Assembly: GCA_937949525.1 (NCBI GenBank)
Contig: CALEDT010000041.1
Location: 42,709 to 106,708 of the forward strand
Reading direction: 5' to 3'
From: an uncultured Burkholderiales bacterium
GTDB taxonomy: Bacteria > Pseudomonadota > Gammaproteobacteria > Burkholderiales > Thiobacillaceae
Length of the DNA stretch: 64,000 bases
Below the pieces are notes generated by a model, which made no database searches, was not told the origin of the DNA, and saw only the letters and a program-made list of their open reading frames with translations. Made by a program: the position numbers and the translations under genes. Shown piece by piece: positions 4,827-58,165 of the stretch. Each line of letters opens with the position of its first letter. The stretch's first letter is position 1.

Positions 4827-5737
4827 CAGGCGTTGTCCTTCAAAAGATGCTGATACACCAGGTTCATGATGATCAGGCGTTGCGACTGACTCAGGGCACC
4901 GAACTGCACGCCGAACGCGTTCATCGGCTTGCCTTGTTCGTCCTCCTCGACGCCGATGGAACGGATCACCGCCGGCGTCCTCACGTACTCTTCCATGTCG
5001 CCCAGATTCACCTTGAACGACAGCCACAGAGTCTGATCCTTCACGCCCAGCGCACCGGGCGACAGCAGCTTGGCGCCGCCGACGCTCAGGTCGACGATGC
5101 GCCCGGCGCCCGACTGGCGCGCCTCCTCGCTGTCCTGCACGGCGACGATGATGCTAACGGGCGCGCGCATGTTCTTGCGGATGCGCATGGCCTGCACGCT
5201 GTCGGGATAGGACAGGTGCAGATAGGGAAAGGGTTGCAGTTGCGCCTTCAGCACCCGGGCCTTGAACGCGCACACGTTGAGGCCGGAGAACGCGCGCACC
5301 AGATAGGTCTGGCCGTCGCGCACGAAGATCAGCTTGCCTTCGACGACCGGCGCGGTGACCAGCACGCTCTTGGGTCGCATGATGCCGATCACGCGCACGG
5401 TGTAGCGCTCGGTCTGCCCTTCCAGCAACGGTTGCAACTGCAACGCGTCACCGGGCATCAGCTTGATCGCTTCGAAAGACAGGCTCTCCTCGGTCGGCTT
5501 GGCGCTGGTGCGCTCCGACTCCGCAGTCTCGCGCGCGGCCGCGACCGACGCGGTATTGCGCTCGCGTTCGCGGAACAGGCCGCGACGGGTGAGTTCTTCA
5601 AGCTGATGTTCGCTGGTCACCACCACGCCCCGGTTGAGCAGCAGGTTGCGGTCCGCGTCATAGACCGCGAACGGTAGCGGTTTGCCGAGCTCGATCTCGG
5701 CCTTGCGTACCGGAACCAGGAAATCATCCAGCGCCAT
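4826..5737 (-). CDS. PilZ domain protein (YcgR-like, c-di-GMP receptor)
   Basis: RIRKNMR (RxxxR) followed by DLSVGGAKL (DxSxxG), with a YcgR-like beta-barrel region before it. SD GGGGGA lies upstream of the ATG at 5737. Confidence 0.85.
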
Positions 5738-14905: not shown

Positions 14906-17019
14906 TGCGCGCCGAGTTGGGCGATGTCGGCGACACTGTTCATCAGTTGCCCCAGTGACGCCAGCAGCGCCAGACGATTGGCACGCACCAGCGGCTCCTC
15001 GGTCATGACCATGACTTCATCGAAGAAGCGGTCCACCGGAGCCTTCAACGCCGCCAGGCGCAGCAACGCAGCGACATAGTCCAGACCGGCGAGCGCGGAT
15101 TCGATGCCGGGACGCGCGCGCTGCAACGCGTCGAACAAGGCGCGCTCCGCGTCTTCCTGGAACAGTGCGGGGTCGACCCGGTCGGCGCGCACGCCCGCCT
15201 TGCGCAGCAGATTCTGGATCCGCTTGTTGGCCCCGGCCAGCGCCGCCGCCTCGGGCAGGCGGCTGAACTCGGCCACGGCCGCGAGTCGTGCCGGCACGTG
15301 ATCGATGCGGCGCGGATGCTGACTCACCACCGCCTCCACCTGATCGCCCGGCGCGCCCTGATCCTTCAGATATACGCGCAGCCGCTCGAGCATGAACGCA
15401 AACACGTCCAGCGCCACGCTGGTGGCGAGCTGCTCGGGGGCGAACTGCGCGCGCGCCAGCTCCAACAGATCCGGCAGATCCAAAGGCAGGGCCTTTTCCA
15501 TCAGCATGCGCAGCACCCCCAGCGCGGCGCGGCGTAACGCGAACGGGTCCTTGTCGCCGCTGGGCACCAGACCGATGCCGAAGATGCCGACCAGGGCATC
15601 GAGCCGGTCCGCCAACGCGACGGCCAGCGCGATGTTGCCTGCGGCGAGGGCATCGCCGGCGAAGCGCGGCAGATAATGATCGCGGATGGCGTCCGCGACC
15701 CGTGCATCCTCGCCATCGTGCAGCGCGTAGTAACGCCCCATGACGCCCTGCAGCTCCGGGAATTCGCCGACCATGTCGGTCACCAGGTCGGCCTTGGCCA
15801 GTTCCGCGGCACGCATGGCCAGCGCCTCGTCCGCGCCCAGCGCGGCGGCGATGGCGCCGGCCAGCTTGACCAGCCGGCGCACGCGCGCGCCCAGACTGCC
15901 CAACCGGTTGTGATAGACCACCTTGTCCAGCGCGGCGACGCGCGCTGCCAGCGGCCGCTTGCGATCCTGGTCGTAGAAGAACTTGGCGTCGGCCAGCCGC
16001 GGGCGCACCACGCGCTCGTTGCCGCCGATGACCTCCCCGGCGTCCTCCGGGCGGATGTTGGCGACGACCAGGAAACGATGGGTCAGACGGCCGGCGGCGT
16101 CCAGCAGCGGAAAATACTTCTGGTTGGCCTTCATGGTCAGGATCAGGCATTCCTGCGGCACGCTCAGGTACTCCGCATCGAACTGGCACAGCAGCACGTT
16201 GGGCCGCTCCACCAGCGCGGTGACCTCGTCCAGCAGGGCCTCGTCCTCGACCGGTCGGGCGCCACCGCCGACCTCGTCGGCCTTGACCCGCAACTGCCGG
16301 ACGATCTCCGCACGCCGCCGGGCGAAACCGGGGATCACCGCGCCCTCGGATTCCATCTGCGTTTCGTAGCTACCCGCATGCCGAATCGACAACGGGTGAC
16401 GCTGCGCCTCGAACCGATGCCCGGACGTCTCGCGCCCCGCAACCAGGCCCAGCACGGTCACCGGCACGACGTCCGCACCGTGCAGCGCCAGCAGGCCGTG
16501 GGCCGGACGCACGAAGTTCACGGTGGTCCAGCCATCGGCCAGTTGATAGGTCATGACCTTGGGAATCGGCAGGCGCGCCAAGGCTTCCTCCAACGCCAGG
16601 CGCAGCCCCTCGACCAGCGTGACCCCGGGCACCACGCGATCATGGAACAGCGCTTCCGCCTTGCCATCGGTCACCCGCCTGAGGTGGACGACCGCCGCGG
16701 CGTCCAGTCCCAACGTCGCCAGGCGCTTGAGCAAGGCCGGTGTCGCTCGGCCCTGCGCATCGAGGCCGACGCCCACCGGCATCAGCTTGACGGATTCGGT
16801 CTTGTCCGCGGCCACCGCGAGCACGTTCGGCACGGTGACGCCCAGTCGGCGCGGGCTGGCATACACGTTCGACGGCAGGGTCTGCGCGGGGCACAGGCCA
16901 CGCTTCTTCAGGCCATCACACACCGCTGCGGCGAAGGCATCGCCCAGCGCCTTCAACGCCTTGGGCGGCAGTTCCTCCACCAACAATTCGACCAGCAGAT
17001 CGTTCGCGTCCATGCTCAT
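14902..17019 (-). CDS. glyS: glycine--tRNA ligase beta subunit
   Basis: 705 aa. N-terminus [15 protein letters not shown] is typical of GlyS. ATG overlaps the glyQ stop. Confidence 0.97.
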
Positions 17020-17933
17020 GCCGCCTTCTGCGCGATCTGCGCCAGAACCTCATCCGCCCAGGGCTTGGGTGCCATGGGGAAACCCAGTCGTGCGCGCGAA
17101 TCCAGATAGCTGCGCGCCACGCCGCGCGCCAGGTTGCGGATGCGGCCAATATAGGCGGCGCGCTCGGTGACCGATATGGCGCCGCGCGCGTCCAGCAGGT
17201 TGAAGGTATGCGCGGCTTTCAGCACCTGTTCGTAGGCGGGCAGCGCCAACCGGGTATCCATCAGATGTTGCGCCTGTTTTTCGTGGGCGTTGAACGCAGC
17301 GAACAGGAATTCGATGTCGCTGTGCTCGAAGTTGTAGGCGGACTGTTCCACCTCGTTCTGATGGAACACGTCGCCGTAACGGATGCCGGGCGCGTATTCC
17401 AGATCGAACACGTTGTCCACCCCTTGCAGGTACATGGCCAGGCGCTCCAGGCCGTACGTGATCTCGCCGGTGATCGGCTTGCAGTCGATGCCGCCGACCT
17501 GCTGGAAATAGGTGAACTGGGTCACCTCCATGCCGTTGAGCCACACCTCCCAGCCCAGGCCCCATGCGCCCAGCGTCGGGTTCTCCCAGTCGTCCTCGAC
17601 GAAGCGCACATCGTTGCGGCGCAGGTCGAAACCGAGCGCGCGCAGTGAGTCGAGATACTGATCGAGGATATCGGCCGGCGCCGGCTTCAGCACCACCTGG
17701 AACTGGTAATAGTGCTGCAGACGGTTGGGGTTGTCGCCGTAGCGGCCATCCTTGGGGCGGCGCGAAGGTTGCACGTAGGCCGCCTTCCACGGCTCGGGGC
17801 CGAGCGAGCGCAGGAAGGTCGCCGTGTGGCTGGTGCCGGCGCCGACCTCGAGATCATAGGGTTGCAGCAAGGCGCAACCCCGTTCGCCCCAGTATCGCTG
17901 GAGCGTGAGGATGATGTCCTGGAATGCGGGCAT
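17016..17933 (-). CDS. glyQ: glycine--tRNA ligase alpha subunit
   Basis: [31 protein letters not shown]... is near-invariant GlyQ sequence. Confidence 0.97.
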
Positions 17934-18237
17934 GGCACACGCTGGGAAGCCGGAAAACCTTGGATTCTACCGGCGGCGCGGCGCTTGCGCGTAACCCGCC
18001 GTCGACCGCCGCGGCGGCTGCGGGGCGCCGTGGTCGGGCTGCGCCCACTTGTCGGAATTTCGTCGAACCGTCGCGCCGGTCGACGCCACCGCTCGGCCGC
18101 TTGCCGACGGGACCAACCACGGCGCGGCGTGGCGCGCCCATCGGAGCCGTCAGGCCGACCCCATGTCTGCGCGGGCGCATGGAGACCGGCACCCGGCCGA
18201 GGCATTGCCGCCGGGATCAAAACGTACCAAGCAACCA

Positions 18238-18253
18238 TGGCACGCAAATTGCT
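18238..18253 (+). promoter_or_regulatory. sigma54 (RpoN) -24/-12 promoter TGGCACgcaaaTTGCT
   Basis: Exact TGGCAC-N5-TTGCT with GG and GC 10 nt apart. It lies in a non-coding gap, 27 nt upstream of an SD/ATG. Confidence 0.5.
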
Positions 18254-18279
18254 GCTCTACACTCAAATTGGAGGAAACC

Positions 18280-18435
18280 ATGACGCTCAACCTGACCCCC
18301 AGTCTGACCATCCGCATTCGCCGCGCCGCCGACGACGCGCGTCAGGTGATCCGCACACATACCCGCCGTCTGTCCATCACCAGCATGACCTTCCTGAAAC
18401 TGGAGGTCATGGTGTTCCGCTACCACGTGAAGTAA
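18280..18435 (+). CDS. candidate small protein, 51 aa (MTLNLTPSLTIRIRR...VFRYHVK), no family assigned
   Basis: GGAGG at 18270-18274, 5-nt spacer, ATG. 44 of 51 codons end in G/C. The 3' 29 nt overlap the convergent kinase gene. Confidence 0.4.
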   Translation: MTLNLTPSLTIRIRRAADDARQVIRTHTRRLSITSMTFLKLEVMVFRYHVK

Positions 18436-19768
18436 GCGGCAGGCTCACGCGCGCGATCAGACCGCCGCCGTCGCGGTCGGCGAGTTCGATGCGCCAGCCA
18501 TGCGCATCCGCCAGTTGGCGGGCGATGGCCAGCCCCAGACCACTTCCGCCCTGCTCGCGATTGCGCGACGTCTCCAGCCGGGTGAACGGGCGGAACACCT
18601 CCTCGCGCCGTTGTGCGGGAATGCCGGGGCCGCGGTCCAGCACCTCCACATGGGCCTGGTCGCCGACGCACGACAGGCGCACTTCCACCTCGCCGCCGCC
18701 ATAGCGACGCGCATTTTCCAGCAGATTGCCGACCACCCGGCGCAACGCCGCCTCGCCCAGCGCCACCGTGCAGGGTGGTCCGGGCTGCCAGCGTACCGGC
18801 CCCAGACGCGCCGCCTGGGTACACAGATCGGCCAGCACGACATTGGGATCGCCGGGCGTGCTGGCGTCCTCGTGCAGCGCGCGTGAGAACGCCAGCATGT
18901 CGCCGATCAGCCGGTTCATTTCGGCGAGGTCGCGCTCCATCGCCGCCACGCGCTCGGGATCGGCGTCGTCCAGCAGCGACAGCGCCAGATGCAGGCGGGT
19001 GATGGGGGTGCGCAGATCGTGCGAGATGCCGGCCAGCAGCACGGTGCGGTTCTCCAGCAGGGCGCGCACTTCCTCGGCCATGCGGTTGAACGCGGCGGTC
19101 AGCTCGCGCAGTTCGCGCGCACCGGTTTCCGGCAGGCGCGCGGGCACGCGCCCGCGTCCCACCTCGGCCGCCTTGTGTGCCAGACTGGTCAGGCGGCGGC
19201 TGATCTGACGCGCCAGCACCAGCGCGGTCAGCACCGTCAACGCGGCACCCAGCAGGAATACGCCGGCCACGGCCAGCGGCGCGCGCAAGGCATAACGTTG
19301 GCGCTCGAAGCCGACGCGCAGCAGCTTGTCGGCCACGCGCAACTCCAGCCAGTCGTAGCGCGCGTCGCCGGCGCGCATCAGTCGTACTGGTTGTGCCGCG
19401 CGCCGGCTTGCCGCCTGTTCGATCAGCCGCCCGAAGTAGCCGGAATCGGCGGTGGTATGCAGACGCTCGCCGCGCACCTCGCCGAGCTCCAGGCCATGCC
19501 GGAACGACAGTTCCATCTCGTAGTCGGCGCGTGTCTCGGGCGGCAGTTCCACCCAGGTCTGCGCCACCAGCACGATGCGGGCGGCGAGATCGTCCGCGGA
19601 GCGCTGCGCCAGCGGCTCGATCACCAGCCGCCAGACCACCAGGAAAGCGATGGCCTCGAAGATCAGGAACGCCACCAGCAGCGCTGCGGCGGCGCGCCCG
19701 AACAGGGTCTGCGGCAGAGGAATCAAGCCATCCTGCCGCGCGGCGAAAACAGATAGCCCTGACCCCAC
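18407..19768 (-). CDS. EnvZ/CpxA-like sensor histidine kinase
   Basis: Two TM segments, HAMP, H-box LLAGISHDLRTPITRL, and N/G boxes (NARRYG, DRGPGIP, GGSGLGLAI). Start uncertain: GTG 19768, or TTG 19726 overlapping the regulator stop (TTGA). Confidence 0.9.
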   Translation of the reverse strand: MGSGLSVFAARQDGLIPLPQTLFGRAAAALLVAFLIFEAIAFLVVWRLVIEPLAQRSADDLAARIVLVAQTWVELPPETRADYEMELSFRHGLELGEVRGERLHTTADSGYFGRLIEQAASRRAAQPVRLMRAGDARYDWLELRVADKLLRVGFERQRYALRAPLAVAGVFLLGAALTVLTALVLARQISRRLTSLAHKAAEVGRGRVPARLPETGARELRELTAAFNRMAEEVRALLENRTVLLAGISHDLRTPITRLHLALSLLDDADPERVAAMERDLAEMNRLIGDMLAFSRALHEDASTPGDPNVVLADLCTQAARLGPVRWQPGPPCTVALGEAALRRVVGNLLENARRYGGGEVEVRLSCVGDQAHVEVLDRGPGIPAQRREEVFRPFTRLETSRNREQGGSGLGLAIARQLADAHGWRIELADRDGGGLIARVSLPLTSRGSGTP

Positions 19769-20424
19769 ACGGTGCGGATGTACACCGGATTGGCGGGATC
19801 GTCCTCCAGCTTGCGACGCAGGCGGGTGACGCGCACGTCGATCGATCGGTCGAACGGATCGCGCTCGTAGCCCTTCAACCAGTCCATGATCTGGTCGCGC
19901 GACAACGCGCGGTTGGGGTGCTCGACGAACAACTTGAGCAGGCTGAACTCCGCCTGGGTGAGCGCGACGTCGACACCGTCCCGGCTCAGCGCCTGGGCCG
20001 CCAGATCCAGCGCGAACGGGCCGAAACGCACCAGTTCAGCCCCGCCCGCCCGCGTACCGGCGCTGCCGCGCCGCAGCACGGCGCGGATGCGTGCCAGCAG
20101 CTCGCGCGGATTGAACGGCTTGGGCAGGTAATCATCGGCGCCCACCTCCAAGCCGACGATGCGGTCGATGTCCTCACCGCGCGCCGACAGCATGATCACC
20201 GGCACGTCGGCCGCCGCCTTGATGCGCCGCGTCAGACTCAGGCCATCCTCCCCCGGCAGCATCAGATCCATGACGATCAGGTCCGGCATGCCGGCGCGCA
20301 GCCGTTCGTCCATTTCGCCGCCGTCGCGCGCGGTGCTCACGTCGTAACCCTGCTTGGCCAGATAATCCGCCAGCAGGTCACGGATGCCGGCATCGTCGTC
20401 CACCACCAGTACCCGGTCGCCCAC
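19723..20424 (-). CDS. OmpR-family response regulator
   Basis: RVLVVDDD...MDLMLPGEDG...DDYLPKPF receiver plus a winged-helix C-terminus (VWGQGY). GTG at 20424 with GGAGG 7 nt upstream. The track ORF extension is spurious. Confidence 0.92.
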   Translation of the reverse strand: MGDRVLVVDDDAGIRDLLADYLAKQGYDVSTARDGGEMDERLRAGMPDLIVMDLMLPGEDGLSLTRRIKAAADVPVIMLSARGEDIDRIVGLEVGADDYLPKPFNPRELLARIRAVLRRGSAGTRAGGAELVRFGPFALDLAAQALSRDGVDVALTQAEFSLLKLFVEHPNRALSRDQIMDWLKGYERDPFDRSIDVRVTRLRRKLEDDPANPVYIRTVWGQGYLFSPRGRMA

Positions 20425-20524
20425 CACTTCGCCTCCGAAACACACTGTTACAAATCTAGCCGATGCGGAAACCGCCGTGTTACCGCCCCCGCCTAGCATG
20501 AGCACCATGGAAAGGAGCAATGCC

Positions 20525-20869
20525 ATGAAAGCCAGAACCCTGATCCCCCTGCTGCTGGCCCTGACCACCACCCCGGTGATGGCACAGGATGCCTACACCA
20601 GCCTGTTTACCGGTGTAAGCGTCACGGTCGCACAGCTCGGCGCGGAAGAACGCCGCGCCTGGCAGGAACGCTGGGAACGCGCCAACCCGGACGAGCGGGC
20701 CCGGCTGCGTCAGGAGATGCAGGATCGCATGCGCATGCCCGGATTTCCAGACAACGGCCGCTTCGGCACCGGTTATGAACGCCGGTTCGAGGATGGACGC
20801 GCTGACGATCGTGGCGCACGCGAGTTCCCGCCCGTGCCCCGCCCGTCGCGCGATGGTCGCGGCCGTTGA
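20525..20869 (+). CDS. small secreted, highly charged protein (114 aa)
   Basis: Signal peptide MKARTLIPLLLALTTTPVMA-QD, SD AAGGAG upstream. The mature part is Arg/Glu/Asp-rich (EERRAWQERWERANPDERARLRQEMQDRMR). Confidence 0.6.
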   Translation: MKARTLIPLLLALTTTPVMAQDAYTSLFTGVSVTVAQLGAEERRAWQERWERANPDERARLRQEMQDRMRMPGFPDNGRFGTGYERRFEDGRADDRGAREFPPVPRPSRDGRGR

Positions 20870-20900
20870 ACGCTCAACCTGACCAACCAGGAGTCGAATC

Positions 20901-21440
20901 ATGCGTAACCTCAAGAAAATCGCCCTGCCGGCCATGTTGCTTGCCGCGCTGCAACTCACGCCCGCGCTGGCGGGTGGTCCGCGCCATGCCCCGGTGTTCC
21001 AGGACCAGGCCCGGGTGATCTCCAGCATCGCGGTGTACGAACGCATCAACGAACCGCGACGCGAATGCTGGACGGAACAGGTCGGCTATGAAACCGTCGG
21101 CAGCCGTGACCGCAATTACGGCGGCGCCATCATCGGCGGTATCGTCGGCGGCGTACTCGGCAACCAGGTCGGCAAGGGCACCGGACGCCATGTCAGCACC
21201 GCCATCGGTGCCGCCACCGGCGCCATCGTCGGTGACAACCTGGGCAACGGCCGCTACGTGCAGACCGGCTATCAACGCCCGATCTACGAGGAGCGTTGCC
21301 GCACGGTCGACAACTGGAGTCAGCGCCTGACCGGGTACGACGTCACCTACCGCTATCAGGGGCGCGACTACACCGCCTTCATGCCGCGCGACCCGGGACC
21401 GTTCGTACGCGTGCACGTTCAGGTGTCGCTGGCCGAGTGA
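20901..21440 (+). CDS. glycine-zipper 2TM (17-kDa surface antigen/SlyB-like) outer-membrane protein
   Basis: Signal peptide, then GGAIIGGIVGGVLGNQVGKGTG...AIGAATGAIVGDNLG glycine zipper. Confidence 0.8.
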   Translation: MRNLKKIALPAMLLAALQLTPALAGGPRHAPVFQDQARVISSIAVYERINEPRRECWTEQVGYETVGSRDRNYGGAIIGGIVGGVLGNQVGKGTGRHVSTAIGAATGAIVGDNLGNGRYVQTGYQRPIYEERCRTVDNWSQRLTGYDVTYRYQGRDYTAFMPRDPGPFVRVHVQVSLAE

Positions 21441-21542
21441 CCCCGGTCATGCCGGCCGGCGCGGGATGGGGGAACCGGATGGACGTCCGCCCCCCTGCGG
21501 CGGCCGATCGCGAATTGAAGCGATCACGGCCTTGCGGTTACA

Positions 21543-23549
21543 GTGACGTCTGCCTGTGTCCCCGACGTGAAGCCCGTGCGCCAGTTGTTCGCCGCCACCA
21601 CGCTGTTCCTGATAGCGACCCTCGGCGCCGCGCACGCGCTGGCCTCGGTCGAGAATGCCTACATCGCGGCGCGCGAAGCATTCCAGAAAAAGCAGACGGC
21701 GCGCTTCGAGCAGCAGGCAGCACGCATCCCCGCTGACCATCCGCTCGCCCCCTACGTGCGCTTCTGGCGCCTGCAACTGGGACGGACGGACGAAGCGGCG
21801 ATGCTCGCCTTCATCGAACGACATGCCGACACGCCCCTGTCCAACCGCGTGCGCGGCGATCTCGCGCTCCAGTACGCGCGCGCCGGCGACTGGCAGGCGT
21901 TCGGCCGGCAGTACGCGCTGCTGCATCGCCCCGATCAGGAACTGCAGTGCCATGACCTGCGCGCGCGCATGCTGGCCGGCGAGGCCAGCGCCGAGCGCGA
22001 CGGTCTGACGCTGTGGCGCACGCCGCGCGACCTGCCGTCGAGCTGCGACGCCGTGTTCGCTTTGCTCGACGAACGCGGCCTGCTCAGCACCGAGGAGCGC
22101 CTGCGCCGTCTGCGCCTGGCGCTGGATACCGACAACCTGCGCCTGGCGCGCGACATCGATGCCCGTCTGCCGCCCGAGCTGCGCATGGTACGCGACGCGC
22201 TCACCAGTGCCCAGGCCGATGCGACGCGCTTCCTTGCGCGCGCCGCGAACACCCCTGGGCAGCGTGAAGCCGCGTTGTACGCACTTACCCGCGTTGCGCG
22301 CGACGATCCCGAGGCGGCGGCGCGCCTGTGGGAATCGCGTCAGGACGACTTCACCGAGGACGAGTGGCGTTACGGCTGGGGTCAGATCGCCCTGCACGCC
22401 GCGCGCCGCCATGACGGTCGCGCGTTGCGCTGGTTCTACCGCGCCGGCCCACCACACAGCGAGCTACAGGCGCAGTGGCGCGCGCGCGCGGCCCTGCGCG
22501 CCGGCGCCTGGCCGGACGTGTACCACGCCATCCAGGCCATGCCTGAAACCCTGCGCGATCAGGCGGTATGGCGCTACTGGCGCGCTCGCGCGCTGAAGGA
22601 ACTGAACGCGCCGTCCCAGGCCAACCAGTTGTTCGCGCCGCTGTCGCGGGAAATCCATTACTACGGCCTGCTGGCGCAGGAAGAACTGCCGGTCAAGCTG
22701 GAGGCGCGTCCGGCCGAGTACAAGGTCACCCCGGACGACATGCGCCAGATCGAGTCGCTGCCGGGCCTGCGGCGCGCACTGTTGCTGCGCCGCGCCGGTG
22801 ACCCGGCCAATGCGGTGGCGGAGTGGGATTGGGCGCTGCGTGGACTGGACGATCGTCTGATCCTCGCCGCCGCCGAGCTGGCCCGGCGTGAAAACTGGCA
22901 TGACCGCGCCATCGTCACGGCCGAACGCACGCGCGAGCTGCATGATTTCGACCTGCGTTACATCGCGCCTTATCGGGATCTGGCCAGCGCCTACTCGTCG
23001 CAGCATGGACTGGACGAGGCCTGGGTGTATGGCCTGATGCGCCAGGAGTCGCGCTTCGTCGAACACGCGCGCTCCAGCGTCGGCGCCCAGGGTCTGATGC
23101 AGATCATGCCCGCAACGGCGCGCTGGATCTCCGACCAGTTGGGCCTCAAGCGCGGTGCTCAGGCCGCCGTGCGCGATCCGGAGACCAACATTCGTTTCGG
23201 CACCTGGTATCTGCGCCATGTCTACGATTCGCTGCACCGCTCGCCGGTGCTGGCCACCGCCGCCTACAATGCGGGCCCTGGGCGGGCGCGGCGCTGGCAG
23301 GCCGAGGAGCCGCTGGAAGGCGCCATCTACGTCGAGACCATCCCGTTCGTGGAGACCCGCGAATACGTCAAGAAAGTGATGGCCAACGCCATGTTCTACC
23401 GTGCCCGCTTCGGCGCCGAGTCCCTGCCGTTGAAGGAACACCTGGGCGTGATTCCGGCACGCGCCAGCGCCGCGCGCATCGCCGCAGACACGACCGGCGA
23501 TGAACGCCCCGCGTCCGCACCGGCCGGCGCGGGAAGCGGTGAAGGCTGA
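21543..23549 (+). CDS. slt: soluble lytic murein transglycosylase (Slt70 family)
   Basis: Superhelical N-domain, then catalytic GLMRQESRF...GLMQIMP...AAYNAGPGR. A more likely start is GTG 21567 (VKPVRQLFAATTLFLIATLGAAHALA signal peptide). Confidence 0.92.
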   Translation: MTSACVPDVKPVRQLFAATTLFLIATLGAAHALASVENAYIAAREAFQKKQTARFEQQAARIPADHPLAPYVRFWRLQLGRTDEAAMLAFIERHADTPLSNRVRGDLALQYARAGDWQAFGRQYALLHRPDQELQCHDLRARMLAGEASAERDGLTLWRTPRDLPSSCDAVFALLDERGLLSTEERLRRLRLALDTDNLRLARDIDARLPPELRMVRDALTSAQADATRFLARAANTPGQREAALYALTRVARDDPEAAARLWESRQDDFTEDEWRYGWGQIALHAARRHDGRALRWFYRAGPPHSELQAQWRARAALRAGAWPDVYHAIQAMPETLRDQAVWRYWRARALKELNAPSQANQLFAPLSREIHYYGLLAQEELPVKLEARPAEYKVTPDDMRQIESLPGLRRALLLRRAGDPANAVAEWDWALRGLDDRLILAAAELARRENWHDRAIVTAERTRELHDFDLRYIAPYRDLASAYSSQHGLDEAWVYGLMRQESRFVEHARSSVGAQGLMQIMPATARWISDQLGLKRGAQAAVRDPETNIRFGTWYLRHVYDSLHRSPVLATAAYNAGPGRARRWQAEEPLEGAIYVETIPFVETREYVKKVMANAMFYRARFGAESLPLKEHLGVIPARASAARIAADTTGDERPASAPAGAGSGEG

Positions 23550-47636: not shown

Positions 47637-47830
47637 TTCCAAGTTGCTCCACCGGCGGGATTTCGGAACGTCACCGACTTCCGTTCCTGTTTCGGTGGAT
47701 GTTTACGACTCCTTCGAAAGACGGGTGCTCGGAGGAAAGCTCAACCGGTAGCGATGTTCGGATTTCGCCCCCGACGCCGTCGAGTCGACAGACCGGACGG
47801 CGGCACAGGCCCGGAGAAATATCGTATCTC

Positions 47831-47846
47831 ATTGTTTATAAACAAT
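47831..47846. promoter_or_regulatory. perfect 16-bp AT-only palindrome ATTGTTTATAAACAAT
   Basis: Self-complementary. It lies 10 nt upstream of the -24 element of the PEP-CTERM gene promoter, in a 66% GC genome. Confidence 0.4.
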
Positions 47847-47855
47847 AATAAAAAC

Positions 47856-47871
47856 GGGCACAGTCATTGCT
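47856..47871 (+). promoter_or_regulatory. sigma54 -24/-12 promoter GGGCACagtcaTTGCT
   Basis: GG-N10-GC spacing is exact and 5 of 6 plus 5 of 5 consensus positions match. GGAG at 47895 and ATG at 47905 lie downstream. Confidence 0.5.
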
Positions 47872-47904: not shown

Positions 47905-48717
47905 ATGCACAAGTTCGCATCCGCCTTGCTGTTCGCCGCCAGCCTGGCCGCCAGCGCCGCCGCGCAGGCGGTGGTGATCACCATCGACGGCAATCTGGCC
48001 GACTGGGGCCTGAAACGCAACGGCAACGCCAACGACTGGATCCCGGACCCGGCCCTGGGGCTGGTGGAAGGCGTGAACTGGAAGGTCGAAGACCAGACCG
48101 GCGGCGCCAACAGCTTTCTGAATCCCGGCTGGGGCGGCCAGGCCTACGACGCCGAGGCGTTATACGTCCATCTCGACAGCAGCCACCTGTATATCGCCCT
48201 GGTCACCGGCCTGAGCCCTGACACGATCACCAACCCGGCGCTCAACACCTACGGACCGGGCGATTTCGCCATCGATTTCGGCCGGAACGGGGTGTTCGAG
48301 TTCGGCATCGAGACCACCGGCCCGAACGCCGGCGCAGTGTATCGCGTCGACCAGTGGGCCTACGGCCTGTGGGACGTCAACGGCAATCACAATCCCGCCA
48401 ATCCGGACACCGGTCATCCCACGTCCATCGTCGCCGGCACCCTGGTGGGCCAGGGCCAACTGGTCTACACCACCAGCGCGTTCAAGAACATGGGCATCCA
48501 CAAGAACGACCAGCACTACGTCATCGAAGCCGCTATTCCGCTCAGCGTGTTCGCCGGCTTTTCCGGCAAGTTCGATGTGCACTGGACCATGGACTGCGCC
48601 AACGATGCGATCTGGGTCGATCCGGAACTGGCCGCCGTCCCCGAGCCGGGCACACTGGCGCTGCTGCCGCTCGGTCTGGCCGGCCTGCTGGCGCTGCGCC
48701 GACGCACGGCCGTCTGA
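47905..48717 (+). CDS. PEP-CTERM sorting-domain secreted protein
   Basis: Signal peptide. The C-terminus VPEPGTLALLPLGLAGLLALRRR is a canonical PEP-CTERM motif, TM helix and Arg cluster. Confidence 0.9.
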   Translation: MHKFASALLFAASLAASAAAQAVVITIDGNLADWGLKRNGNANDWIPDPALGLVEGVNWKVEDQTGGANSFLNPGWGGQAYDAEALYVHLDSSHLYIALVTGLSPDTITNPALNTYGPGDFAIDFGRNGVFEFGIETTGPNAGAVYRVDQWAYGLWDVNGNHNPANPDTGHPTSIVAGTLVGQGQLVYTTSAFKNMGIHKNDQHYVIEAAIPLSVFAGFSGKFDVHWTMDCANDAIWVDPELAAVPEPGTLALLPLGLAGLLALRRRTAV

Positions 48718-55963: not shown

Positions 55964-56061
55964 GGTGTCTCCTCCTATGGCGGGCGTAGCGCATGGCATT
56001 GTGCACCGCAAAAGCTGACGCGAGCCTGACGGCGCTCACCTTACCGGCCTCGCCGGACAAC

Positions 56062-56078
56062 CGCACCATTCCGGTGCA
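56062..56078. promoter_or_regulatory. NtrC-type dyad cGCACCattccGGTGCA (candidate enhancer for the prkA sigma54 promoter)
   Basis: 11 of 12 match to TGCACC-N5-GGTGCA. Centred about 100 bp upstream of the -24 element. Two more GTGCACC copies at 56001 and 56084. Confidence 0.45.
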
Positions 56079-56170
56079 CCGATGTGCACCACGACCTGCC
56101 AAGGGTCATGAAATTTTCCTCAACCGGCACCAATTCCTGTCGATACGGTCTCAACAGACGTTTTTGGCAG

Positions 56171-56186
56171 TGGCACGCACATTGCT
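56171..56186 (+). promoter_or_regulatory. sigma54 -24/-12 promoter TGGCACgcacaTTGCT
   Basis: Exact consensus and spacing, 60 nt upstream of the prkA ATG. Confidence 0.6.
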
Positions 56187-56245: not shown

Positions 56246-58165
56246 ATGAGCTTGTTCAATCAGTACATCGAACGTTACCGCCGCGTGGAAGAGGAATACA
56301 CGCTGGAGGAATACCTGAAGATCTGCAAACAGGACCGTATCGCCTACGCCAGCGCGGCCGAACGCATGCTCGCGGCGATCGGCGAGCCGGAACGGGTGGA
56401 TACCCGCCAGGATCCGCGCCTGTCGCGCATCTTTTCCAACAAGATCATCAAGATCTACCCGGCGTTCAAGGACTTCTACGGCATGGAGGAGACCATCGAG
56501 CAGATCGTCTCCTATTTCCGCCACGCCGCGCAGGGGCTGGAGGAACGCAAGCAGATCCTCTACCTGCTGGGGCCGGTCGGTGGCGGCAAGTCGTCGCTTG
56601 CCGAGAAGCTCAAGCACCTGATGGAAAAGGCGCCGTTCTACGCGATCAAGGGCTCGCCGGTGAACGATTCGCCGCTGGCGCTGTTCTCCGCCGAGGAGGA
56701 CGGCGACATCCTGGAACAGGAATACGGCATCCCGCGCCGCTATCTCGGCCGCGTGCTGTCGCCCTGGGCAGTCAAGCGCCTGCACGAGTTCAACGGCGAC
56801 ATCACCAAGTTCCGCGTGGTCAAGCGCTGGCCGTCGGTGCTGGGCCAGGTCGGCATCGCCAAGACCGAGCCGGGTGACGAGAACAACCAGGACATCTCCT
56901 CGCTGGTGGGCAAGGTGGATATCCGCAAGCTGGAGAAGTTCTCGCAGGACGATCCGGACGCCTACAGCTACTCCGGTGGCCTGTGCCTGGCCAACCAGGG
57001 GCTGCTGGAATTCGTCGAGATGTTCAAGGCGCCGATCAAGGTGCTGCATCCGCTGCTGACCGCCACCCAGGAGGGCAACTACAAGGGCACCGAGGGCTTC
57101 GGCGCGATTCCGTTCGACGGCGTGGTGCTGGCGCACAGCAACGAGTCGGAATGGCAGGCGTTCCGCAACAACAAGAACAACGAGGCCTTCCTGGACCGCA
57201 TCTACATCGTCAAGGTGCCGTACTGCCTGCGCGTGTCCGACGAGGTGAAGATCTACCGGAAGCTGCTGCGCCACAGCTCGCTGTCGGATGCGCCGTGCGC
57301 GCCCGGCACGCTGGAGATGCTGGCGCAGTTTTCGGTGCTCACGCGCCTGAAGGAACCGGAGAATTCCAGCATCTTCTCGAAGATGCGCATCTACGACGGC
57401 GAAAACCTGAAGGACACCGACCCCAAGGCCAAGTCGTATCAGGAGTATCGGGATTTCGCCGGGGTCGACGAGGGCATGACGGGCATTTCCACGCGCTTCG
57501 CGTTCAAGATCCTGTCACGCGTGTTCAACTTCGATCACAGCGAGATCGCCGCCAACCCGGTACACCTGCTGTACGTGCTGGAGCAGCAGATCGAACAGGA
57601 ACAGTTCCCGCCCGAGGTGGCGCAACGCTACGTCGCCTACCTCAAGGAGTACCTGGCGCCGCGCTACGCCGAGTTCATCGAGAAGGAGTTGCAGACCGCC
57701 TATCTGGAGTCGTATTCCGAGTACGGCCAGAACATCTTCGACCGCTACGTCACCTACGCCGACATGTGGATCCAGGACCAGGAATACCGCGACCCGGATA
57801 CCGGCGAAATCCTCGACCGCGGCCAGCTCAACGCCGAACTGGAGAAGATCGAGAAGCCGGCCGGCATCGCCAATCCCAAGGACTTCCGCCACGAGGTGGT
57901 CAATTTCGTGCTGCGCGCGCGCGCGCAGAACCACGGCAAGAACCCGGCGTGGACCAGCTACGAGAAGCTGCGCGCGGTGATCGAGAAGCGCATGTTCTCC
58001 AGCACCGAGGATCTGCTGCCGGTGATCTCGTTCAACGCCAAGGCCTCCAGCGAGGAGCAGAAGAAGCACCACGACTTCGTGCAGCGCATGGTGGCCAAGG
58101 GCTATACCGACAAGCAGGTGCGCCTGCTGGCGGAATGGTATCTGCGCGCACGCAAGGCATCGTGA
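56246..58165 (+). CDS. yeaG: PrkA/YeaG family serine protein kinase
   Basis: [11 protein letters not shown]...[18 protein letters not shown] (Walker A), full-length similarity by eye to E. coli YeaG. Confidence 0.95.

Follow-up and report, generated by a model that had tools for sequence, protein, structure and literature searches.

A conserved 51-codon gene with a predicted sigma-54 promoter converges on an EnvZ/OmpR-like operon in Thiobacillaceae and Hydrogenophilaceae

We describe a small gene of 51 codons in a 64,000-nucleotide (nt) stretch of contig CALEDT010000041.1, from an uncultured Burkholderiales bacterium of the Thiobacillaceae (assembly GCA_937949525.1). The whole stretch is called the window below, and positions refer to it. 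The gene lies between glyQ and the gene of an EnvZ-like sensor histidine kinase, is preceded by an exact sigma-54 consensus, and converges on the kinase gene from the opposite strand. Comparison with its relatives indicates that the open reading frame (ORF) is a protein-coding gene under purifying selection, and it is very probably a real gene whose expression depends on sigma-54. It appears to be a genuine lineage-restricted gene of the Thiobacillaceae and Hydrogenophilaceae, and we would class it as an unannotated small-protein gene of a sigma-54 regulon, outside the known protein and RNA families that we tested. The broader statement, a sigma-54 small-protein gene that also acts on the adjacent two-component system, we hold to be evenly balanced between true and false; the action on that system, taken by itself, falls a little below even.

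Conservation of the small gene

An earlier note on the window had placed a sigma-54 motif at 18238-18253, a GGAGG and an ATG at 18280 in front of a 51-codon ORF, and each of these, together with the translated peptide, was present as described (Table 1). Its count of 44 codons out of 51 ending in G or C was also correct, as was the AT-rich character of the stretch in front of the ORF (46% G+C in 18215-18279 versus 67% window-wide).

To compare the locus with its relatives, we scanned one genome per GTDB species and obtained 36 loci, which with the window make 37 sequences. All 36 come from metagenome-assembled genomes (MAGs) labelled Thiobacillus, Thiobacillaceae, Hydrogenophilales/Hydrogenophilaceae, Tepidiphilus or Hydrogenophilus, or carrying broader labels, and the small-gene loci cover two NCBI classes, Betaproteobacteria and Hydrogenophilia. 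We found that the ORF starts with ATG, is exactly 51 codons long and has no insertions or deletions in any of the 37 sequences. Frame 0 was open in every one of them, while frame +1 contained stops in every one. Variation was concentrated at third codon positions (column entropy 0.56, 0.36 and 0.98 at positions 1, 2 and 3), and the median pairwise ratio of non-synonymous to synonymous substitution rates (dN/dS) was 0.29. At locus L001, where the DNA is about 90-92% identical to that of the window, the ORF differs at 10 positions, all of them synonymous and none non-synonymous. Conserved serines switch between the TCN and AGY codon families, the amino-acid substitutions that do occur are conservative (K/R, L/M/I, S/T), and a GGAG, GGAGG or GGAA stands 5-9 nt before the ATG in nearly all loci. 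The earlier note had held that relatives keeping the nucleotide motif with a broken frame would point to an antisense or small RNA or to chance. No such relative was found: the frame was never broken, and the change within it was biased towards synonymous sites.

A protein search extended the family to 56 clusters (clustering at 90% identity) that are 69-100% identical to the peptide, all labelled hypothetical or unnamed. Almost all of the cluster proteins have 51 residues from the same methionine, and the longer ones reflect upstream start calls; an in-frame ATG 24 nt upstream accounts for the 59-residue gene calls. Because this upstream ATG lies at or before the predicted transcription start, we infer that the 51-residue form is the likely product. 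Four of the 51-residue clusters (P0004, P0027, P0039 and P0050) listed 'members' of 384-429 residues, one of them named as HlyD family; these sequences are unrelated to the peptide, and we rejected them as a database artefact.

One Tepidiphilus locus, L025, carries a tandem duplicate of the gene (5001-5156 and about 5209-5364). Both copies keep the 51-codon frame and each has its own GGCA-N6-TTGC core, the second promoter beginning 8 nt past the first stop. An intact frame with its own promoter in each tandem copy argues for a function at the protein level. The second copy is altered at near-invariant residues (R12L, D18N, R25H and F46L).

The sigma-54 promoter

Only two exact matches to TGGCAC-N5-TTGCW occur in the 64 kb, one starting at 18238 and the other at 56171. 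Allowing one mismatch raised the number to 7 sites, against 2.2 expected, and none of 100 shuffled sequences reached 7. In the comparison, GGCA(C/T)-N5-TTGC was present once within the 120 nt upstream of the ATG in 37 of 37 loci, at 27-45 nt before the ATG (mode 30). The promoter core is invariant by the construction of the search, and the evidence lies in every locus having the site at the same place; the expectation of the core motif by chance, estimated from base composition, is about 1e-3 per locus. When the loci were aligned on the GG, the eight core positions were kept in all of them, and the spacer and flanks carried only about 0.1-0.4 bits per position. The spacer that separates the promoter from an upstream dyad can no longer be aligned between the window and L001, yet both elements are kept. 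Because promoter core and frame are retained in all 37 sequences while the surrounding non-coding sequence has diverged, their conservation is more than chance would leave. A scan for a sigma-70-like promoter found none, and such scans are weak in high-GC genomes.

From the predicted position of the transcription start, the leader would be about 15-18 nt long. Together, the footprinted core, the conserved upstream dyad and the conserved frame support the proposal of the earlier note that a sigma-54 promoter drives a translated ORF, as far as comparison of sequences can tell.

A conserved dyad upstream of the promoter

Upstream of the promoter lies a conserved dyad, box 1, that we regard as a candidate upstream activating sequence (UAS). 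In the relatives it belongs to a composite element that consists of box 1, TGTCGGAAWTYCGWCG, about 10 nt, and then box 2, G(G/T)TTTCGCC, with fixed internal spacing; in most loci its start is 98-120 bp from the -24 GG. A weight matrix derived from 21 loci other than the window gave the window site 18.8 bits, and the next best of about 128,000 positions (128 kb scanned) scored 6.4 bits. Ahead of the small gene, box 1 scored 13 bits or more in about 31 of the 37 loci, six of which were outside the set used to build the matrix. It accompanies the small gene regardless of the neighbour on the upstream side, be it glyQ or an inserted operon, and no consistent second box 1 site was found elsewhere in the loci. 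The idea that the dyad is the OmpR-like regulator's own site found no support, as no match was found upstream of the regulator operon in any locus.

To see where else such an arrangement occurs, metagenomes were scanned with the pattern CGGAATTCCGWC-N76-106-GGCAY-N5-TTGC, which gave at least 120 matches. Among the matches listed, the downstream gene was a small gene of the same family at 6 loci, fliL at no fewer than 12 diverged promoters, flgB at 5 loci and the small subunit of a [NiFe]-hydrogenase at 3 loci; a pilin, a PEP-CTERM protein and an enhancer-binding protein followed once each. Judged from these placements, the palindrome is an upstream activator-type site at genuine sigma-54 promoters elsewhere. 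At fliL, flgB and the hydrogenase genes it stands about 75-100 bp ahead of the promoter.

In its layout the locus resembles classical sigma-54 promoters with a dyad UAS: it has the GG-N10-GC core in common with them, along with a dyad some 100-200 bp upstream and what is predicted to be a short leader. The signatures of NifA (TGT-N10-ACA), NtrC and PrsR (TTTACA) are all missing at the small gene, and no activator gene is encoded nearby. Among sites described in the literature, AauR has a footprinted site, TTCGG-N4-CCGAA, at aatJ (PMC7962211), and the FleQ site reads GTCaNTAAAtTGAC (PMC6120874). Of the 10 positions specified in the AauR site, the dyad core, TCGG-N4-CCG, agrees with the central 7; the outer bases of the dyad differ, which makes AauR a lead and not an assignment.

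The junction with the kinase gene

Except in L016, every locus whose sequence extends far enough has a convergent histidine kinase gene downstream of the small gene, and this linkage reaches Tepidiphilus, Hydrogenophilus and the most divergent members of the family (56% identity). Most commonly the kinase ORF and the small gene overlap by 20 nt; elsewhere the overlap is 29 nt or 62 nt, or the two meet with zero gap or lie 6-39 nt apart. In the window, the 29-nt convergent overlap agrees with the earlier note, and the gap between glyQ and the kinase gene, put there at about 470 bp, measures 473 bp (glyQ start at 17933, kinase ORF end at 18407). The conserved HATPase domain stops about 7 residues before the kinase stop, and the tail of the kinase is read from the strand opposite the small gene as far as the first stop codon. 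The other side of the small gene is variable: the neighbour there may be glyQ, a group of F5/8-type-C, tetratricopeptide repeat (TPR) and roughly 330-residue proteins, or a 2163-residue PKD/SprB protein with a 332-residue protein.

The window has no intrinsic terminator 3' of the small gene, and no locus among the 37 has one that is consistently placed. Because no intrinsic terminator follows the ORF, read-through into the antisense strand of the kinase gene is plausible, in line with the earlier note, which expected the transcript to run antisense into the two-component operon unless it terminated first. The 400 nt past the small-gene stop average 40% C and 30% G. C-rich, G-poor untranslated RNA is a good substrate for Rho, and the stretch 18436-18835 is likely a zone of Rho termination.

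Synonymous variation was about 2.4-fold lower in codons 34-51 (18379-18435) than in codons 2-33, as tallied over the window and L001-L036. For example, Phe46 is TTC in 36 of 36 sequences, His49 is CAC in 21 of 21, and Glu42 is GAA in 31 of 37 despite 86% G+C at third codon positions. This suggests an extra constraint at the nucleotide level near the kinase junction. RNAalifold found no consensus structure in the ORF on either strand, and Rfam gave no match at the gathering score in the whole window and none at E ≤ 1 in 17900-18700. A 10-bp hairpin, CATGACCTTCC...GGAGGTCATG, can be drawn in codons 36-44 of the window and L001 only.

The predicted protein

The small protein has 51 residues and a mass of 6.06 kDa, is strongly basic (pI 11.8) and lacks a membrane segment and a signal peptide. 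It had been called unplaceable before. This stands for the known protein libraries, as profile searches of Pfam, NCBIfam, PHROG and PDB returned no match for the peptide, but not in the wider sense, since the protein has a narrow family of its own in the clusters described above. RE_ApaLI recurred as a match at E 0.009-0.05 and was rejected as far below the cut-off. An exhaustive profile search of 1.84 billion representative proteins recovered nine clusters of the protein's own family and one spurious Ig-like repeat protein.

AlphaFold2 was run with two alignments. Alignment A1, which included the N-terminally extended gene calls, gave a helical hairpin with a predicted local distance difference test score (pLDDT) of 64 and no Foldseek matches. 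Alignment A2, which is cleaner and more diverse (42 sequences), gave an all-beta model with a pLDDT of 93.4 and a predicted template modelling score of 0.71, and three of the five models scored above 91 in pLDDT. The A2 model is a five-stranded beta meander, with strands at residues 2-6, 9-15, 22-27, 31-38 and 41-48. It fits the sequence better than the helical model does, and we treat the A1 model as superseded. Both LTIRIR and LEVMVF show hydrophobic residues alternating with polar ones, a turn of the beta model accommodates the near-invariant Pro7, and the most variable columns, residues 19-22, lie in its longest predicted loop.

A Foldseek search with the beta model returned nothing below E 0.001. 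The best matches were at E 0.2 against PDB (generic sheets: RseB, phytochrome GAF/PAS and Roadblock) and at E 0.03 against BFVD (unnamed phage proteins). Two known folds were tried and rejected. A ribbon-helix-helix protein of the CopG/Arc/MetJ type, threaded by eye onto CopG and Arc, found no match at E ≤ 10 in Pfam or PHROGs with 38 members of the family, and the confident model (A2) is all-beta. For a CsrA/RsmA-like protein, the hhalign probability was 0.24% and no CsrA structure was among the top 50 Foldseek matches.

Possible action on the two-component system and alternative explanations

In the mechanism that we propose, RNA polymerase with sigma-54 would bind the GG and GC elements at 18239-18252, and an AAA+ activator may bind the conserved dyad at 18050-18065 and lead to open-complex formation; sequence and comparison support the promoter and the conserved dyad. 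Transcription would begin near 18264, and the 51 codons would be translated from a leader of about 15 nt with its GGAGG. The transcript would then run antisense into the 3' part of the kinase gene, where Rho would probably stop it in the C-rich stretch. The protein, the antisense read-through, or both may tune the adjacent EnvZ/OmpR-like system, a step to which the conserved tail-to-tail linkage points, and such tuning would connect the signal of the activator to the envelope-sensing system. A more elaborate version is a dual-function switch, in which a beta protein of new fold binds the kinase or the regulator and an excludon-like cis-antisense RNA acts against the 3' end of the kinase message. 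We consider this version unlikely; if true, it would mean that the signal of an enhancer-binding protein overrides or retunes an envelope-sensing two-component system.

Several observations weigh against the proposed mechanism. All homologues of the small gene come from MAGs or metagenomes, and the peptide has no match to a known connector or to any other family. The two AlphaFold2 runs disagree, one being helical and the other all-beta. The window and L001 keep box 1 only and lack box 2, GTTTCGCC, and their box 1 is unusually far from the promoter (189 bp in the window, 219 bp in L001). The window contained no GAFTGA motif, and in L037-L039 a search of the 10 kb around the small gene found no Sigma54_activat gene. 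Inherited synteny could account for the link to the two-component system: throughout the clade the whole regulator-kinase-Slt block is syntenic, genes that overlap cannot be separated by insertion, and in L016 a different gene follows the small gene.

The last of these points leads to the alternative that has to be taken most seriously, namely the same gene with the same sigma-54-driven expression and a function unrelated to the kinase and regulator. Its position would be inherited and locked by the overlap, and it would serve the regulon of its activator. We regard this as a considerable possibility that stays clearly under even. Adjacency may indeed carry little information, as the regulator, the kinase, a 143-residue protein, the glycine-zipper protein and Slt, often with glyQS, form a block that is syntenic across the clade. 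The dyad, promoter and ORF behave as a conserved mobile unit, which in L016 stands beside a different gene, and other bacteria have identical palindromes ahead of the sigma-54 promoters of flagellar, hydrogenase and pilin genes. Against an unrelated function, the upstream side has been rearranged repeatedly while the kinase junction was kept in all but one of the loci with enough sequence, across two NCBI classes, and no Thiobacillus-type locus yielded a second regulon member with the dyad. Should the link to the kinase prove to be synteny only, what is left is an ordinary but well-supported new family of small proteins.

Two further alternatives would deny either the protein or the promoter. 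A sigma-54-dependent non-coding antisense or small RNA, with the ORF incidental and untranslated, would agree with a transcript that overlaps the kinase 3' end and meets no terminator, and with the reduced synonymous variation in codons 34-51. It is very improbable in view of the frame, length, start codon and Shine-Dalgarno sequence kept in 37 of 37 loci, the dN/dS of 0.29, the serine codon switches and the tandem duplicate that keeps the frame; nor did RNAalifold find a structure or Rfam a match at E ≤ 1. Slimmer still is the chance that the sigma-54 site is not a productive promoter and the gene is expressed in some other way, the site being a chance match or a closed complex that acts as a roadblock to transcription from the kinase gene into glyQS. 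The kinase gene shares its strand with glyQS, which makes read-through across the region conceivable, and no activator gene lies nearby; yet the core is present in 37 of 37 loci, about 30 nt from the ATG and on the strand of the ORF, the dyad stands at enhancer distance, and chance would give the core at about 1e-3 per locus.

Relation to known regulatory systems

A regulatory role for such a protein would have parallels. PmrD, a small cytoplasmic protein rich in beta structure, targets a regulator of the OmpR family, and the target of MzrA is EnvZ. The gene described here resembles the enterobacterial connectors PmrD, SafA/B1500, MzrA and MgrB in encoding a tiny protein under one regulator with a proposed action on another two-component system, and it is physically tied to an EnvZ/OmpR-like pair. 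It differs from them in several ways: the protein has no sequence or structural similarity to any of the four, its promoter is of the sigma-54 type, the gene overlaps the kinase gene convergently, and the action is a proposed one. In addition, MgrB, SafA and MzrA have a membrane segment and the small protein has none.

The antisense part of the proposed mechanism is closer to SR7/SR7P of Bacillus subtilis, where a SigB-dependent antisense RNA also codes for a protein of 39 residues (bioRxiv 10.1101/2020.05.15.097949), and to excludons. The shared features are a short mRNA made with an alternative sigma factor, a small protein, a 3' part complementary to a convergent gene and the lack of an intergenic terminator. 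The sigma factor and the organism differ, and at the present locus the small gene overlaps the 3' end of a kinase coding region, on which an antisense effect may be exerted.

Small proteins are systematically missed by annotation, and the gene, for which the comparative evidence is unusually clean, offers a test case in three respects. It bears on the make-up of sigma-54 regulons in sulfur-oxidising chemolithoautotrophs outside the genes for nitrogen, flagella and exopolysaccharide, on whether small proteins or convergent read-through link enhancer-binding proteins to EnvZ/OmpR-type sensing outside the enterobacteria, and on the role of what is predicted to be a 51-residue, all-beta, highly basic fold with no structural relative.

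Comparison with other sigma-54 regulons

The second exact sigma-54 consensus in the window (56171-56186) precedes prkA (56246-58165; Pfam AAA_PrkA and PrkA). Upstream of it are an NtrC-type dyad, GCACC-N5-GGTGC, at 56063-56079 and further half-sites at 56000-56014 and 56084-96. This arrangement suggests that prkA is under the control of nitrogen limitation, as is yeaG in Escherichia coli. The earlier note had pointed out that the two promoters differ by a single base. This is correct, and the base lies in the spacer; as a sign of co-regulation it does not hold. Because the enhancers differ, the likeness of the promoter cores is not evidence of co-regulation, and NtrC co-regulation of the small gene with prkA was rejected, as GCACC-N5-GGTGC is absent from up to 350 bp upstream in 37 of 37 loci.

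A PEP-CTERM gene (47905-48717; Pfam PF07589) has a sigma-54-like core, GGGCACAGTCATTGCT, at 47856-47871, preceded by an AT-rich stretch at 47830-47855. In appearance it is a PrsR-type exopolysaccharide/PEP-CTERM promoter of the sort reported by Haft et al. 2006 (PMC1569441), in whose PrsR regulon a 17-nt motif 1 ending in TTTACA stands about 63 bp upstream of the sigma-54 site. The host lineage has the PrsR/PEP-CTERM system, and box 2 in the relatives is about 61-64 bp from the promoter, near the published 63 bp. Membership of the small gene in this regulon is not supported: there is no TTTACA motif, and the protein has no PEP-CTERM domain or tail. The weight matrix of the small gene scored the site upstream of the window's PEP-CTERM promoter at -1.4 bits only.

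A palindrome, CGGAATTCCG(T/A)C, was seen about 75-100 bp upstream of fliL and flgB sigma-54 promoters on many diverged metagenome contigs (L046, L054, L055, L058, L069, L070, L072, L073, L076, L098, L111 and L115, and further L124, L148, L151, L152 and L158). At fliL, a second dyad, TGTGCG-N6-TCACA, follows the palindrome. This is probably a flagellar FleQ-type activator site in a Steroidobacteraceae group. The named relatives found with fliL as query are Steroidobacteraceae and not Thiobacillus; the palindrome does not place the small gene in a flagellar regulon.

Features of the locus and neighbouring genes

The coordinates of the locus are collected in Table 1.

Table 1 Features at and around the small gene, in window positions
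Feature	Position	Strand	Remarks
glyQ	17016-17933	-	Pfam tRNA-synt_2e
Candidate UAS 'box 1', dyad TGTCGGAATTYCGWCG / TGTCGGAATTTCGTCG	18050-18065	+	Conserved; 189 bp upstream of the -24 GG
Sigma-54 (-24/-12) promoter TGGCACGCAAATTGCT	18238-18253	+	Exact consensus TGGCAC-N5-TTGCW
Promoter TGGCACgcaaaTTGCT elements	GG 18239-18240, GC 18251-18252	+	Read from the sequence
Predicted transcription start	18262-18266	+	Inferred from the usual sigma-54 spacing, C of the GC element = -12
Shine-Dalgarno sequence GGAGG	18270-18274	+	5 nt before the ATG at 18280
Small gene, 51 codons plus stop at 18433-18435	18280-18435	+	Peptide MTLNLTPSLTIRIRRAADDARQVIRTHTRRLSITSMTFLKLEVMVFRYHVK
Convergent overlap of the 3' ends of the small gene and the kinase gene	18407-18435	both	29 nt
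EnvZ-like sensor histidine kinase	18407-19768	-	HAMP, HisKA and HATPase_c (Pfam)
Untranslated stretch 3' of the small gene	18436-18835	+	Antisense to the kinase gene
OmpR-like response regulator	19723-20571 (maximal ORF)	-	Response_reg and Trans_reg_C (Pfam)

Along the minus strand, the OmpR-like regulator comes first and the EnvZ-like kinase second; then come the gap, which holds the small gene in the opposite orientation, and glyQ and glyS. Among the NCBIfam models, EnvZ matches the kinase best, at 243 bits and below the equivalog cut-off of 415 bits, and OmpR the regulator, at 293 bits and below the equivalog cut-off of 331 bits. The family match of the regulator begins at residue 52, and its true start is probably further downstream than that of the maximal ORF.

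Three genes, conserved with the regulator-kinase operon across the clade, are divergent from it (20384-23549). The first encodes a secreted Arg/Glu-rich protein of about 140 residues without a family match, and the other two encode a glycine-zipper lipoprotein (20901-21440) and a soluble lytic transglycosylase (21543-23549). The OmpR-like regulator may plausibly have these three genes as envelope targets.

Between glyQ and the putative enhancer (17934-18049 in the window) lies an insertion hot spot, where other lineages carry other large genes. Insertions are present in L004, L005, L013, L016, L027, L029, L032 and L037-L039, and in several of these lineages a protein of about 330 residues without a Pfam match ends just before box 1.

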